32,000 nucleotides of DNA. Origin: Promethearchaeota archaeon. Its GTDB lineage: Archaea > Asgardarchaeota > Lokiarchaeia > Sigyniarchaeales > Promethearchaeaceae. The translations under genes were made by a program, and so were the position numbers. Under the pieces are notes generated by a model. It was not told the DNA's origin. It saw nothing but the letters and a program-made list of their open reading frames with translations, and ran no database searches. Below, in pieces: positions 3,644 to 21,480 of this stretch; position 1 is the first letter of the stretch; each line of letters starts with the position of its first letter. The stretch is from the NCBI GenBank assembly GCA_016933055.1, contig JAFGBS010000021.1:30001-62000 (forward strand), given 5' to 3'.

Positions 3644-5080
3644 TCAAAAAACATAGACAATTACTGATAGATATGCTATTCCCAAAATAATATGCAAGCA
3701 GGCAAATAATCCCCCTATCTTGAATAATTTTTTGTAATTAAGATCGTCTACACAATATTCCCGTGCAATTTCTAATGTCATTAGATCTGCAGCACTTCCT
3801 TGAGGTAGAAAATTCCCCCCTAAATTAATTCCTAAAATAAAAGCAAATATTATGGGAGACGAATTTTCAACAACAGCCAAATGTCCTAATAGTATATTTA
3901 TTATTGGTATGAACATTATGGTAACGGGAGCATTATCCAAAAACGCAGATAAAATAGAAGTTGAAAAAAGGATAATCAAACTCGTTATAAACACATGGGA
4001 TTGACCGATATTTTCTAAAAACATTTCTAGAAATTGAATCGTTCCATTAGCCTCCATTAGATGAACTAATACAAAAAGGCAAATAAAGAAAAAAACAAGT
4101 TTAAAGTCTACACTTTTTAAATAATGGCTCAGAGAGGGGAGAATTTTATCTTTTTTGCGAGTTTGCACGGGATTGATTAACACAAATATTATTAACGCAA
4201 TAAAAGCTGGTAGATAGAGGTCTGGTATAAATACTAATAATACAATAAACAACACCAGCGCACCAAGGTTGAGGTAAAATGTCTTATTATCTACTTGTTT
4301 TTTAAGATTCATGGTGATTTCTGTGCTCCCTTCATAAAATACGGAATGAAAATCTTTGTGTTCTATTTGAATTGATTCTTTTGCATTTGGATCAGATGGA
4401 TCGGTAGCGAGTTCTTCGCAATTTGGACTCCATTTTACTTTTAAATATTTCTTTAATACAAATTGATCTAGTAGGAGTAGCGTAACACTTGTTGCAACTA
4501 CAAAATAGACTGAGAAATTTTTGAGGAAAAAACCAATACTCAAATCCAGAGCATTAAAAATTAATATGTTTTGAGCAGATCCGAAAGGAGTTAAGGTCGC
4601 TGCCAAATTTATACATATTGTCATACCCAGTAAAAAAGGCGTTGGATTGATACTTAGGGTTAAGCATGCAATAACTATCACTGGTCCAAAAATAATTGCT
4701 ATAGAAAGATCTTCTAATATAGTTGCAGTTAATGTGCTAACTATACAAATAAAATAAAACATAAGCCGTATTTTTTTTTTAAAAGTGATAACAATTCGTC
4801 TGGATACTTCGTGGAAAATTTTTTTCTCATTCAATATCTGCACAATAGTGAACATCGCAATTAAAAAGGCAATTACCTCCCAATCAATAGCCTCAACATA
4901 AAACCAAATAGTTGTGGGATCTAATGAAGGATCAGGAGAAGTTTCCAGAAGAAAAGCGGTTGCAATCCCTGCAATGATAATGAAAGCAAAAGCAAATAAT
5001 AAGTAATCTAGCTTCTCTATAAATAGGACAATAATTAATCCGATAAAACATGAGAGGACAATGATTTGAAGAATAAGCAT
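3644..5080 (-). CDS. ArsB/NhaD/SLC13 (IT superfamily) permease, paralog A
   Basis: 478 aa with DWEVIAFL, TLTPFGSAQNI, LSAFLDNAPVT and GINLGGNFLPQG; clear paralog of the 1978..3435 gene. Confidence 0.88.
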   Translation of the reverse strand: MLILQIIVLSCFIGLIIVLFIEKLDYLLFAFAFIIIAGIATAFLLETSPDPSLDPTTIWFYVEAIDWEVIAFLIAMFTIVQILNEKKIFHEVSRRIVITFKKKIRLMFYFICIVSTLTATILEDLSIAIIFGPVIVIACLTLSINPTPFLLGMTICINLAATLTPFGSAQNILIFNALDLSIGFFLKNFSVYFVVATSVTLLLLDQFVLKKYLKVKWSPNCEELATDPSDPNAKESIQIEHKDFHSVFYEGSTEITMNLKKQVDNKTFYLNLGALVLFIVLLVFIPDLYLPAFIALIIFVLINPVQTRKKDKILPSLSHYLKSVDFKLVFFFICLFVLVHLMEANGTIQFLEMFLENIGQSHVFITSLIILFSTSILSAFLDNAPVTIMFIPIINILLGHLAVVENSSPIIFAFILGINLGGNFLPQGSAADLMTLEIAREYCVDDLNYKKLFKIGGLFACLHIILGIAYLSVIVYVF

Positions 5081-17203: not shown

Positions 17204-19009
17204 TCAAAAAAACTTCAATATAGATCCTTGTGATTGAGCTGGAGGAGGAATGTTCAGAATCGATGATAGAGTAGGAGCAATATGTATCAATTCCGTTAAC
17301 CCCTCAAGTTTCAATCCGTGTTCAACACTGGGACCTTTGAATATTATCGGAACACTATTGGAAAATGGTCCAAATCGCTTAGTTGGTAAATAATACGCAT
17401 GTGCACCAAAAATATGATCCGAATTATAACAAAGAGGTTTATCAATGAGATTGGTTCTAGCAGCATTCATAACTGCCAGATCATCATCGAATATATTATA
17501 AGGAGGATTGAGGAAATATACCACATCACCAATTCGTTTCCCATTCTGATGCAATTCTGGATGATCTTCTTTGCGCATCACCAAGTCAATAATCGGATTG
17601 TTATTTTCCGGGTCCTTTATGTCCTGTAACACGTCTATCACATGGTCCCTTATAGATTCATAATCTTTTTGATCTACTATTCCTTGGGGATCTCTACCCT
17701 TAAGATTAATCCAGATATAAGTGGGTTCACAATAAGGAAATACCTGAGATTTTGTCCAATCAATTTGATAATAATTCCCATTTTTCCTATAAGCCATTAA
17801 TCCAGCCTCTACTAGCGGTTTAACGATGTTCGCAATCCTCCAGCACGGAATAGCCCCATGATCCGAAATATACACAACTGTAGTATTTTCATCCACCACA
17901 CTATCAATCAAAATACCTACCATATCATCAACAATTGAATAGGCTGTTTGAACGTGATTAATCGCCATTTCAGCGGTTTTCTCATCATATTGGGGGTATT
18001 CAGGATGCAAGTGACCAAGCGTATTGTGATTTATGGTATCTAGGTGATGAACATGAAAATAACATAATTCCCATTTTAATTGTTTTCTTGCAAAATAAAT
18101 GGCATTGGCTATAGCTTGGGTTTCTTTACGAGCGAATTCTAGGACTTCGGTCATTTTCCCCTCAAATGTATATCCTACATTAGATTTCGTAGGATTTTCT
18201 TCGGGAAATTTTATATTTTTCAAAAGTTTTTCCGCAAAATCAGTTGAACTAGTCCATCCATGGGTATTGTATAGCGGAGAAATGATTAACTCAACTTTAG
18301 AACCATCTTGTGCTATTTCGCGTAAATAAAACCGGAATATTACAGGTAAATCCCGCCCTCGATATTGACTAAAACTATTGAACCACTCACTCCACTGTCC
18401 TTGTTGCATAGTGAATTTATGGTTACTATATCCATAATGCAGAGATTTTTTTTGTTTTATTTCAAATTTAATGGCTGTATTATTAGAAATATGGAGGGTG
18501 AAAGTGTTATTTCTGATGATAAGTTTTTTTTTTTTCGAGTTTGTAGAAAAAATTAGTGTCTTTTGTGATCGTATAATTGGAGGAAGAATAGTGGGAATCG
18601 GCCAGGAAAAAGCACTCATAATTCCAAATTTAAGATTTGCTAACCATCCAGCAGGATAATTAATGATAAATGAAGGAATTTGATGTCGATCGGCAGTTTC
18701 CCAGATATATTCTGCTGTAGTGAATTTCTTCAATTGGGAACGAGATCTTTGTGTGGCACCATAATCCAGCTCTTCCCCAGGAATATGGGTATAAAAACTG
18801 GTTGCCCCATGAACGGAAGTTGTAGCCCCTGTGGCGATTGTAGTCCAGTTCGTTGGTGTATCGCAAGGTACGCAAGAAAGCCCCTCTGCATAAACACCAG
18901 ATTCTATTAGATTTTTTATATTAGGTAAAAGTCCCTCATCGACAAATTTATCCAACAGATAGGGAATAGACTGATCGACACCGATTAATAGTACCTTGTT
19001 TCTATTCAT
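17204..19009 (-). CDS. Alkaline phosphatase superfamily (type I phosphodiesterase/nucleotide pyrophosphatase) protein
   Basis: LLIGVDQ, PCDTPTNWTTIATG (Thr nucleophile region), HHLDTINH, ISDHG, FGAH. The ORF-track start (19054) overlaps the SDR; ATG 19009 or 19018 is more likely. Confidence 0.88.
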   Translation of the reverse strand: MNRNKVLLIGVDQSIPYLLDKFVDEGLLPNIKNLIESGVYAEGLSCVPCDTPTNWTTIATGATTSVHGATSFYTHIPGEELDYGATQRSRSQLKKFTTAEYIWETADRHQIPSFIINYPAGWLANLKFGIMSAFSWPIPTILPPIIRSQKTLIFSTNSKKKKLIIRNNTFTLHISNNTAIKFEIKQKKSLHYGYSNHKFTMQQGQWSEWFNSFSQYRGRDLPVIFRFYLREIAQDGSKVELIISPLYNTHGWTSSTDFAEKLLKNIKFPEENPTKSNVGYTFEGKMTEVLEFARKETQAIANAIYFARKQLKWELCYFHVHHLDTINHNTLGHLHPEYPQYDEKTAEMAINHVQTAYSIVDDMVGILIDSVVDENTTVVYISDHGAIPCWRIANIVKPLVEAGLMAYRKNGNYYQIDWTKSQVFPYCEPTYIWINLKGRDPQGIVDQKDYESIRDHVIDVLQDIKDPENNNPIIDLVMRKEDHPELHQNGKRIGDVVYFLNPPYNIFDDDLAVMNAARTNLIDKPLCYNSDHIFGAHAYYLPTKRFGPFSNSVPIIFKGPSVEHGLKLEGLTELIHIAPTLSSILNIPPPAQSQGSILKFF

Positions 19010-19022
19010 CTGAACCATCTCA

Positions 19023-19814
19023 TTATAGGGAAGATTTAATAAAACCCCCATCAACAGGTATAACTTGTCCCGTAATATACGTATTTCTTCCCGATACTAA
19101 AAATGTGACGAAGGAACCGATTTCTTCTGGTTCTCCAAACCTACCAATTGGTATTTGGGAAGTTCGCGATTGAGTAATCTGTTCCTTCGTTTTTCCTTCT
19201 ACCTTTGCCCATCCTTGAATAACCTGTTGAAGACGTTCAGTGTTTATGGTACCTGGCATAACCACGTTTATTAAAATATTATCTCGACCCACTTCGTTAG
19301 CAAGAGTTTTTAGATATCCTACTACCGCAAGTCGTGTGGAATTTGATAGGACTAAATTTGGTAATGGTTGTTTTGCAGATACCGAGGTGATCGCTACAAC
19401 GCGACCGTAGGTTTTTTGCTGCATTAGTGGAATGAATGCTTTAGTTAACCGTACTACAGAGAGAAAATTTGTATTTAGGGCATTTTGCCATTGTTCTTCC
19501 GTCATTTCCAAAGATGATCCGGTTGGGGGACCCCCTGCATTTATAACTAAACCATCCAGTTTTTCGTATTTGCTAATAACGGTATTTTTCAGTTTTTCAA
19601 TGTCCTTCAGATTAGAGACATCCGAAACAATCCAATCAGGCTTTAATCCAGTGTCTAAAACAATTCTTTCAGCTGCATTTTTCAGATTTTTTTCCGATCG
19701 AGAGGAGAGAATTACGTGTGCTCCTTCCTCAGCGAGAATTTTTGCGCACGCATATCCAAGTCCTTTACTTGATCCAGTGATAAGAATTATTTTATCTTGG
19801 AATATGAGATCCAT
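19023..19814 (-). CDS. SDR family oxidoreductase, atypical (FabG-like subgroup lacking YxxxK)
   Basis: TGSSKGLG, NAGGPP, LSNSTR in place of YxxxK, MPGTINT, GRFGEPEEIG, ITGQVIPVDGG. Confidence 0.93.
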   Translation of the reverse strand: MDLIFQDKIILITGSSKGLGYACAKILAEEGAHVILSSRSEKNLKNAAERIVLDTGLKPDWIVSDVSNLKDIEKLKNTVISKYEKLDGLVINAGGPPTGSSLEMTEEQWQNALNTNFLSVVRLTKAFIPLMQQKTYGRVVAITSVSAKQPLPNLVLSNSTRLAVVGYLKTLANEVGRDNILINVVMPGTINTERLQQVIQGWAKVEGKTKEQITQSRTSQIPIGRFGEPEEIGSFVTFLVSGRNTYITGQVIPVDGGFIKSSL

Positions 19815-19854
19815 ACTTGGAGATATGGACCGATAATTTTAAATATACGACTTG

Positions 19855-19890
19855 TGTCAAGTGTACTTGACATATCAAGTTTACTTGACA
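19855..19890. promoter_or_regulatory. Two abutting 18-bp palindromic operators
   Basis: 19855-19872 TGTCAAGT-GT-ACTTGACA (perfect arms); 19873-19890 TATCAAGT-TT-ACTTGACA (one mismatch). Located between the divergent SDR and bPH_2-HTH genes. Confidence 0.85.
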
Positions 19891-19920: not shown

Positions 19921-20757
19921 ATGTCAGAAAAAAACCAAGAAAATGAATATATAGGTGACATACAGCGGGATTATGTCCGAAAAGAAGTTCTGAAATCTCT
20001 AATAATCTCGATGCTCATCTGTGGAGGATTGTTTGGGTTTGTTTTTACTCCTTTGTATTTTGAAGGGGCTCCTTCTTGGGCATTTAATACCCTTTATCTT
20101 AGCCTGGCAGCAATATTTTTTCTGTTAAACCTCATTGTGTATGTCTATGAGATCGCTTTTTGGAAATCATTTACCTATCGAATTAGTACTCAGTATATTC
20201 GCATCAATAGCGGTGTCTTTACGAAGTCGAAAACAACCATCCCTTTTAGTCGAATTCAAAATATAAATATTGCACAAGGTGTGTTTGACCGAATCTTTGG
20301 ACTACACACCGTGAAAATCGAGACAGCGGGAAAAAGTGCAGGTCAGCAGCAAGGCGGACCCATTAAACCTGAGGGATATATACCGGGTGTTAGAGATCCT
20401 ACTCGAATAACAGAAATAATAGATCAGTTGGTGGATAAATACACACAAAAAAAAATGGATGCGGGGATAGGGGATTACATTTTCGAAGACACTAACCTTG
20501 CTTTTGATGAATTTATTGCATATATCCTATCAAAAATGCTGGAGGGGCATCAATTGAAAACTCGTGTAAAAGAATTAAGAGAAAAACAAGTATTATCACA
20601 AGCACAACTCGCAGAAGAAATTGGAGTAAGTCGTCAAACTATTAATTATCTAGAACGAGGAAAATATGTCCCTTCATTGACTCTAGCGATGAAGATAGCG
20701 AAATTCTTCAAAATACCGGTTGAGAAAATTTTTGAATTGGAAGAACAAGACGAATAA
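19921..20757 (+). CDS. Membrane 2TM + bacterial PH (bPH_2/YdbS-like) domain fused to C-terminal XRE/Cro HTH regulator
   Basis: Two TM helices, then TYRISTQYIRINSGVFTKSKTTIPFSRIQNINIAQGVFDRIFGLHTVKIETAG (bPH_2 signature). C-terminus VKELREKQVLSQAQLAEEIGVSRQTINYLERGKYVPSLTLAMKIAKFF is an HTH_3. Confidence 0.9.
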   Translation: MSEKNQENEYIGDIQRDYVRKEVLKSLIISMLICGGLFGFVFTPLYFEGAPSWAFNTLYLSLAAIFFLLNLIVYVYEIAFWKSFTYRISTQYIRINSGVFTKSKTTIPFSRIQNINIAQGVFDRIFGLHTVKIETAGKSAGQQQGGPIKPEGYIPGVRDPTRITEIIDQLVDKYTQKKMDAGIGDYIFEDTNLAFDEFIAYILSKMLEGHQLKTRVKELREKQVLSQAQLAEEIGVSRQTINYLERGKYVPSLTLAMKIAKFFKIPVEKIFELEEQDE

Positions 20758-20766
20758 TCATAATTT

Positions 20767-21480
20767 TTACTTTCTTTTTTCATCTAACACGTATTCTAGA
20801 ATTTCTCGAATAGGTATCAACTCATGCACCACAAGATATTCTTTTGGTTTCTCCTCACCTGAAGTTCTCATTCGTGTTTGTTCCATCTCATAGATGTAAT
20901 CCCGTTCAAAAATGAGAAATCTATTTCGATAATCTATATATTCTTCTTTAGTTAAAAAAATGATACGGGGAATACAGGTATTATAACGATATTTTTCCTC
21001 GACAAATTCTTCTGTTATATCTTTTTGGGTGATATTATCATAGAAATCGCTGATATACATCAAGATTTGCTGGTTTGTTTCTTGAATATAGGTAAATAAT
21101 CGCAAATTAATTAGGAATTCTTCATGTAAATGTTCTATAAACTCATGTGGACTAACTTGCTTAAGATCTTCATAGGTTCTTCCTCTATATCCTCGTTTTT
21201 TCCTAGCAGAATAAATTTTTTGTTTGATAGAGCCACGATAATGTTGCTGTCGTACATCGATGAGTCCAATTTTGATAAGTTCTTTTATGTGTTTAGAAAT
21301 AGTCGATTTTGCTTTTCCCATCTTAGCAGATAATTCAGTTAGAGTAAGTTCTGGAAAAATCAATAACATCATTAATATTCTTACTTTTAAACCAGAGTCT
21401 AGAATTTTTGCATGCTTTTCTGAATCTAATCTAATTTGGTTTTCTAATGAGTTTTTAGAATTATTACTACCTATATCCAA
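20767..21480 (-). CDS. ArsR-like winged-HTH transcriptional regulator with C-terminal extension
   Basis: KVRILMMLLIFPELTLTELSAKMGKAKSTISKHIKELIKIGLI wHTH, RG..KQKIYS wing; TTG start. Confidence 0.85.
   Translation of the reverse strand: MDIGSNNSKNSLENQIRLDSEKHAKILDSGLKVRILMMLLIFPELTLTELSAKMGKAKSTISKHIKELIKIGLIDVRQQHYRGSIKQKIYSARKKRGYRGRTYEDLKQVSPHEFIEHLHEEFLINLRLFTYIQETNQQILMYISDFYDNITQKDITEEFVEEKYRYNTCIPRIIFLTKEEYIDYRNRFLIFERDYIYEMEQTRMRTSGEEKPKEYLVVHELIPIREILEYVLDEKRK

Follow-up and report, generated by a model that had tools for sequence, protein, structure and literature searches.

Paired palindromes at an Asgard BRE/TATA promoter are predicted operators for the CylR2-like domain of a membrane-anchored regulator

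Membrane-bound one-component transcription factors are known from bacteria, with BcrR, ToxR and CadC as examples. For archaeal promoters, membrane control has been shown in Sulfolobus, where it is exerted by ArnR and ArnR1, both of which form oligomers (PMC6396743). A regulator coupled to a membrane part is also found in E. faecalis, in which the cytolysin promoter is bound by the homodimeric repressor CylR2 and the gene beside cylR2 encodes CylR1, a small membrane protein with three predicted transmembrane (TM) segments (PMC3709268; bioRxiv 10.64898/2026.09.04.749385). On Bacillota plasmids (loci L120–L123), genes for CylR2-like helix-turn-helix (HTH) proteins consistently occur together with genes for small membrane proteins (DUF2178, DUF3169 and DUF3796 types) or overlap them, and this combination of a small XRE regulator and a membrane partner is recurrent and largely unstudied. 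Our searches of the literature found no study on bPH_2–HTH fusions or on Asgard XRE regulators.

The locus described here lies in a 32,000-nt stretch of Asgard archaeal DNA, hereafter the window, and encodes at 19921–20757 on the plus strand a 278-residue protein that Pfam matches, an AF2 model and sequence matches in the PDB describe as a membrane-anchored regulator. In the AF2 model (pLDDT 82) residues 17–83 form a TM hairpin made of helices 17–48 and 52–83, followed by a PH fold, composed of a β-sandwich and a C-terminal helix, that continues to residue ∼176. The model then has a linker with little order and a helix at 191–207 before the XRE HTH at residues 216–270. Pfam assigns residues 81–140 to bPH_2 (PF03703; E = 2.2e-19), and the succession of a TM hairpin and a PF03703 PH fold is that of a bPH_2 (YdbS/YdbT-like) membrane protein. 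The nearest Atlas clusters are likewise bPH_2 proteins, and the one HTH_3+bPH_2 cluster among the Atlas neighbors shown is 100% archaeal. The C-terminal domain matches HTH_3 (E = 7.8e-17) and HTH_26 (E = 1.5e-06) in Pfam; PADLOC and NCBIfam returned only generic HTH matches below their cut-offs. In phmmer searches of the PDB, the HTH aligned with CylR2 (PDB 1UTX) at ∼55% identity over 60 amino acids (E = 1.4e-13) and with 9k3w at ∼55% identity (E = 4.6e-15). The helix VSRQTIN is identical in all three proteins, and the recognition-helix codons S237-R-Q-T-I-N242, located at 20629–20646 on the plus strand, specify residues identical to those of CylR2 and 9k3w in the alignments. By these sequence criteria the DNA-binding domain of the fusion is a member of the CylR2-like XRE HTH (HTH_3/HTH_26) group. 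A predicted complex of two copies of residues 186–278 scored 0.21 (mark 0.42) and was given no weight either way.

Comparison with the described systems shows both shared and distinct features. Like ArnR and ArnR1, the window protein joins a DNA-binding domain and a membrane anchor in one polypeptide. However, ArnR is an activator in which the HTH is N-terminal and is combined with a HAMP-like part and C-terminal TM helices, whereas the window protein has the order TM hairpin, bPH_2 and C-terminal XRE HTH, is predicted to repress, and has no sequence relationship to ArnR. With CylR1/CylR2 the protein shares the ∼55% identical HTH and the VSRQTIN helix as well as the coupling of the regulator to a membrane part. 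In contrast to the E. faecalis pair, no separate CylR1-family membrane partner is found beside the HTH gene; the membrane part, a 2TM–bPH_2 (PF03703) module unrelated to CylR1, is instead fused in the same polypeptide. The fusion would work like the CylR1/R2 membrane-coupled system but is not a member of that pair family. Fusion proteins of this type were found in 32 of the 41 related genomes searched, including those of two cultured organisms, Promethearchaeum syntrophicum and Lokiarchaeum ossiferum, and 430 such proteins are present in a large protein collection. The L. ossiferum genome (G009) encodes three full-length fusion paralogues (L006, L035 and a third match); with the patterns used, two of them show no recognizable palindrome within 150 nt upstream.

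The DNA upstream of the fusion gene contains two abutting 18-bp palindromes, neither of which is assigned to a strand. Operator 1 (19855–19872; TGTCAAGTGTACTTGACA) is a perfect 8+2+8 palindrome, TGTCAAGT-GT-ACTTGACA, and operator 2 (19873–19890; TATCAAGTTTACTTGACA) reads TATCAAGT-TT-ACTTGACA, with a single mismatch, a G-to-A change at position 2. The two are separated by a spacer of 0 nt and thus lie 18 bp apart from center to center. The ATG of the fusion gene (19921) is located 30 nt past the end of operator 2, and 40 nt separate the start of operator 1 from the A of the ATG of a divergent SDR gene (19814). The original prediction had described this arrangement, and its sequences, its single mismatch and both ATG distances are all as first read. 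Its further statement that the window has no other full copy also holds, since a scan that allowed up to three mismatches matched only operators 1 and 2. One hundred dinucleotide shuffles of the window yielded 0.09 matches on average, and never two or more; with the conservation of the sites across genera and phylum-level groups described below, this makes a relic without function, or a repeat that arose by chance, extremely improbable.

The pair had also been put forward as a motif that could define a regulon, an expectation that did not survive a genome-wide scan. In the 3.76-Mb genome (GC 35.3%, 91% complete), operators 1 and 2 are the only matches with at most one mismatch. A position weight matrix built from close relatives scored the two operators at 28.0 and 23.2 bits, and the runners-up across the whole genome reached at most 17.8 bits and were all within long ORFs; no further promoter with the motif was found, the local pair alone exceeding 18 bits in this 91%-complete genome. 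The operator pair is a strictly local element and not a regulon motif. A smaller feature adjoins it: ACTTG at 19850–19854 and the left arm of operator 1 together make up an additional short palindrome (ACTTG-TGT-CAAGT, 19850–19862). We considered this ACTTG as a third half-site and dropped it, since close relatives conserve it only in part.

The half-site provides a direct comparison with the cytolysin system. In the cyl plasmid examined (NZ_CP124896.1), the 119-bp cylLL–cylR1 intergenic region contains one perfect palindrome, TTTTGTCAAGTG-T-CACTTGACAAAA, which can be written as the 19-bp TGTCAAGT-GTC-ACTTGACA and has an 8-nt half-site identical to that of the window. The palindrome presumably corresponds to the fragment that CylR2 binds experimentally; text searches of the literature for the palindrome or for "IR1" gave no match. 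Its center comprises 3 nt, compared with 2 nt in the window and in Clostridium, and cyl has this one 19-bp palindrome where the window has two abutting 18-bp sites. In both cases the half-site TGTCAAGT/ACTTGACA is located in a divergent promoter region. The cyl promoter is a σ70 target, however, whereas the window host is archaeal with a BRE/TATA target, and no bacteriocin genes are near the window locus.

Other bacterial relatives extend the comparison. A homologue on a C. estertheticum plasmid, which has the helix SRQTIN and is encoded beside a DUF2178 membrane protein, has TGTCAAGT-TA-GCTTGACA upstream, together with a second site, TGTAAAGG-AT-ACTTGACA. Upstream of a B. licheniformis homologue (SRQTII) is TGTAAAGT-AC-CCTTTACG, and a B. 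thuringiensis homologue (SRQTIS, beside DUF3169) has TGTCAAT-type repeats. The region upstream of a B. cereus homologue (RRETIG, beside DUF3796) contains no such palindrome and no exact half-site, only one isolated half-site with one mismatch. An SRQTIN helix is thus found with a TGTCAAGT inverted repeat in the promoter region of its own gene, and as read from these genomes the helix/half-site pairing recurs in three very distant lineages, one of which has an experimentally characterized repressor of the promoter in question. The Bacillota CylR2/YozG-like XRE (HTH_26) proteins resemble the window protein in HTH subfamily, in linkage to a membrane-protein gene, and in having TGT[C/A]AAGT-type palindromes upstream when the helix is SRQTI. 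They differ in consisting of two separate genes, mostly uncharacterized, whereas the Asgard form is a bPH_2 fusion to which most Asgard lineages add a stand-alone XRE gene downstream.

These bacterial loci also bear on which protein would bind the palindromes. A convergent winged-helix (wHTH; MarR/ArsR/TrmB-like) gene at 20767–21480 ends 10 nt after the fusion gene (20757 to 20767), and its product could in principle be the ligand in place of the HTH of the fusion. Within the close clade the wHTH gene keeps its synteny and the tail-to-tail order is conserved; in three relatives (L113, L115 and L117, around 3831–3840) it shares 4 nt with the 3′ end of the fusion gene. However, the half-site is that of a bacterial CylR2-type HTH, and no wHTH is present among the annotated neighbors of the five bacterial loci examined. 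Moreover, a wHTH homologue occurs in only 5 of 86 loci, while the palindromes are widespread, and binding by the wHTH protein is therefore very unlikely.

Conservation upstream of orthologues had been named in the original prediction as a test of the motif, and the motif is there. In a species-representative collection, the 80 related loci come from Asgard-named genomes, save several labeled "uncultured archaeon" and one Bathyarchaeota-labeled MAG, and include P. syntrophicum MK-D1, L. ossiferum and Harpocratesius. For the upstream-site counts, 82 distinct Asgard orthologue loci were collected and searched over 150 nt upstream with the family pattern TGTNAA-N5-7-TTNACA, allowing at most one mismatch. 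At least one site was found in 59 of the 82 loci, compared with 6.4 ± 2.5 (maximum 13) in dinucleotide shuffles, a count that overstates independence because the loci are phylogenetically related. The density of sites is 16.5 times that in the remainder of the same loci. The remaining 23 loci, among them the two L. ossiferum paralogues noted above, have no family-pattern site within the 150 nt. This family-specific pattern replaced a generic palindrome count (7/8 paired positions), which proved uninformative in AT-rich DNA, where shuffles scored about equally.

The geometry of the sites is conserved. The same abutting pair is present in a same-genus genome ("Promethearchaeota archaeon AMARA_1") and in close relatives, and among the four closest relatives conservation extends over the entire intergenic region. 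L116 and L117 are more diverged and have altered flanks, yet both keep the TATA element and two TGT[C/A]AAG-type palindromes. Abutting 18-bp pairs also occur in separate lineages (L030, L075 and L086). The position relative to the TATA element recurs as well: of the 36 site-bearing loci, 19 have a TATA 8-mer 0–14 nt before the first 18-bp-pattern site, and in 12 of these 19 loci with a TATA within 15 nt the gap is 3–4 nt. The distance to the second site is 18 bp in this genus and in L030, L075 and L086, 20 bp in L116 and L117, 23–27 bp in the MK-D1 group and others, and from >40 to >80 bp elsewhere; 18 and 23–24 bp are frequent values. The variation among lineages argues against a strict phasing requirement.

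In the Asgard loci the half-site varies together with the recognition helix of the fusion. Lineage-specific half-sites common to both sites of a locus are AGCTAAGT in L009, TGCAACC in L012/L013, TGTCAAC in L018 and ACTAGTAAA in L021/L022, and such variants track changes of the fusion recognition helix to SRTTIY, S/AESTI, SETTI and PIQ/ETI. Loci that have the fusion only (this clade, L005, L007 and L008) have the helix S/TRQTI and the site TGT[C/A]AAGT-N2-ACTT[G/T]ACA, except L007, whose site is weaker (TGTAAAAA-AT-ATCTTACA). The covariation of helix and operator, as judged from these alignments, is qualitative and imperfect, since the helix PIQTINYLEE pairs with three different palindrome types. 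Taken with the conservation among orthologues and the identity of the half-site to that of the CylR2-repressed promoter, the helix-tracking variation indicates that the HTH of the adjacent fusion very probably uses the palindromes as its operators. The earlier proposal of HTH operators and autoregulation is, on the same three grounds, likely. In this proposal dimers of the fusion's HTH would bind the palindromes and give negative autoregulation, which we regard as a well-favored prediction from the sequence data.

How such binding would act depends on the promoter. Archaeal BRE elements follow the consensus RNWAAW, which is fitted by a BRE-like GATAAT at 19832–19837 on the plus strand. It is directly followed by a TATA box read from the sequence, TTTAAATA, at 19838–19845 on the plus strand, within a wider A/T element (19836–19847), and 9 nt separate this TATA box from operator 1. 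In archaea the TATA element is centered ∼28 nt upstream of the transcription start (PMC8553660). With the TATA center 26–28 nt upstream, the start of the fusion gene is predicted at ∼19868–19870, inside operator 1, so that operator 1 would span ∼−14 to +4 and operator 2 ∼+5 to +22. Across the genome, TATA-like 8-mers peak sharply at −28 to −25 from ATGs with a smaller peak near −50, and Shine-Dalgarno (SD)-like motifs peak at −7/−8; these distributions suggest a mixture of leaderless and SD-led mRNAs in this Loki-type archaeon. A promoter scan also returned a bacterial σ70 promoter on the minus strand (TTGACA-16-AATTAT), which was ruled out because the genome is archaeal. The TTGACA is part of the CylR2-type half-site; given an Asgard archaeal genome, its reading as a "−35" is irrelevant, and BRE/TATA and start provide the proper frame.

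In the proposed mechanism, dimers of the C-terminal CylR2-like XRE HTH would occupy both palindromes. Because the sites abut BRE/TATA and cover the predicted start, occupancy would block RNAP recruitment or open-complex formation after TBP/TFB, and the outcome would be negative autoregulation of the fusion gene. The presence of two sites, and of a possibly oligomeric membrane module, may provide avidity, and occupancy would respond to a membrane-related signal that the TM/bPH_2 part senses. We infer actual binding, dimeric state, repression, start position and the nature of the signal; the palindromic form of the sites would fit a dimer. Cooperative binding at the paired sites, as first proposed, is only a possibility, as their spacing is not conserved, and the 18-bp center-to-center distance, which places adjacent half-site centers 8 bp apart, could bring steric competition. 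A repressor that sits between the TATA element and the start is the usual archaeal geometry. The repressors MDR1, LrpA and Phr resemble the present case in having an operator directly downstream of BRE/TATA and over the predicted start. They differ in being soluble members of the DtxR, Lrp and wHTH families, whereas the window protein is a membrane-tethered XRE HTH.

The position of the start bears as well on whether the repeats act as RNA, that is, as a 5′-UTR hairpin that affects stability or translation. If fully transcribed, 19855–19890 would fold into a long hairpin (−17.9 kcal/mol, z = −3.8). However, such a hairpin follows automatically from two copies of one palindrome, a single palindrome would have a loop of 2 nt, and the predicted start inside operator 1 also speaks against this reading. 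Among orthologues the spacing of the sites ranges from 18 to >80 bp, and both sites in a genome match in sequence, not just in pairing ability. No Rfam family matched, the sub-threshold chance match icd-II reaching 22 bits against a gathering score of 99. A function as RNA is therefore highly improbable, and we retain the operator reading.

A different question is raised by the genes on the other side of the operators. The divergent SDR gene (19023–19814, minus strand) encodes a protein of 263 amino acids whose homology starts at residue 1, and directly downstream of it is a gene for a type I phosphodiesterase/nucleotide pyrophosphatase (17204–19054, minus strand), which probably forms one transcription unit with SDR. 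With the TATA read on the minus strand, the SDR ATG is ∼27 nt from the TATA center, within the genome-wide peak at −28 to −25, and the 106 nt between the two divergent genes contain no other TATA-like element. The simplest reading is therefore one bidirectional TATA: the element at 19838–19845 is probably used in both directions, and the SDR mRNA is probably a leaderless transcript from the TATA that also serves the fusion gene. Control of SDR by the regulator is possible, as the TATA appears common to both genes, but is unsupported, because synteny is only genus-level and the SDR start in L116 and L117 is far from the TATA.

Seen from the SDR promoter, the operators would be just upstream of BRE/TATA, at ∼−41 to −76. 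Archaeal activators use this position to recruit TBP/TFB. The operators could thus mainly control the SDR–phosphodiesterase unit, as part of a directional switch in which the regulator's own gene is repressed and the SDR operon is allowed or activated. In favor of this role are the ATG-to-TATA distance that matches the leaderless peak, the lack of another TATA-like element that would fit the intergenic region, and the CAT-to-TATA distance, which is free of indels in the four closest relatives. On the other side, the adjacency of SDR, like the synteny of the phosphodiesterase and wHTH genes, is limited to the genus-level clade, whereas paired palindromes are found upstream of the fusion across Asgard archaea whatever lies upstream. 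The homology-defined SDR start is at least 100 nt from the TATA in L116 and L117, and the minus-strand BRE match is poor. Overall, main control of the SDR–phosphodiesterase unit is unlikely; this role complements autoregulation and does not exclude it. In one relative, L115, the SDR homologue (2111–2898) is split into two frames (2898–2788 and 2785–2111), with a called gene of 184 amino acids, possibly through a frameshift or an assembly error.

The autoregulatory reading on its own invokes an already known, ordinary kind of element, an autoregulatory XRE operator. What is new is its Asgard setting on a BRE/TATA promoter, the presence in one polypeptide of a CylR2-type HTH and a bPH_2 membrane module, in contrast to the two-gene arrangement of bacteria, the apparent conservation of a helix/half-site pair across domains, and a TATA possibly common with a leaderless divergent gene. 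The locus offers a concrete, easily testable regulator/operator pair whose predicted specificity can be checked against a characterized bacterial homologue. It is also a case in which an archaeal BRE/TATA promoter makes use of a bacterial-type HTH and its operator, and an Asgard example of a membrane-anchored one-component regulator. A more ambitious picture, which we put forward tentatively and consider doubtful as a whole, is that of a phylum-wide Asgard membrane-tethered CylR2-type regulator that uses the Bacillota code (SRQTIN with TGTCAAGT). At this locus it would sit on a single bidirectional TATA and switch the direction of transcription, turning off its own leadered transcript when bound and leaving or favoring the leaderless SDR–phosphodiesterase transcript, while an oligomeric bPH_2 module would sense membrane state and tether the promoter DNA to the membrane.

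The Asgard loci have one further recurrent feature. In 71 of 86 loci (loci L010–L112; for example, L016:2395–2598 and L010:2401–2583) the fusion gene is followed, after 30–130 nt, by a second, stand-alone XRE gene. The encoded protein has ∼66–75 amino acids in the MK-D1 family and ∼130–148 in other families, and the clade of the window is without it. The recognition helix of the stand-alone XRE protein is nearly constant (SRQTI/SRQMI), unlike the varying helix of the fusion. The two-gene cassette of fusion and stand-alone XRE looks ancestral.
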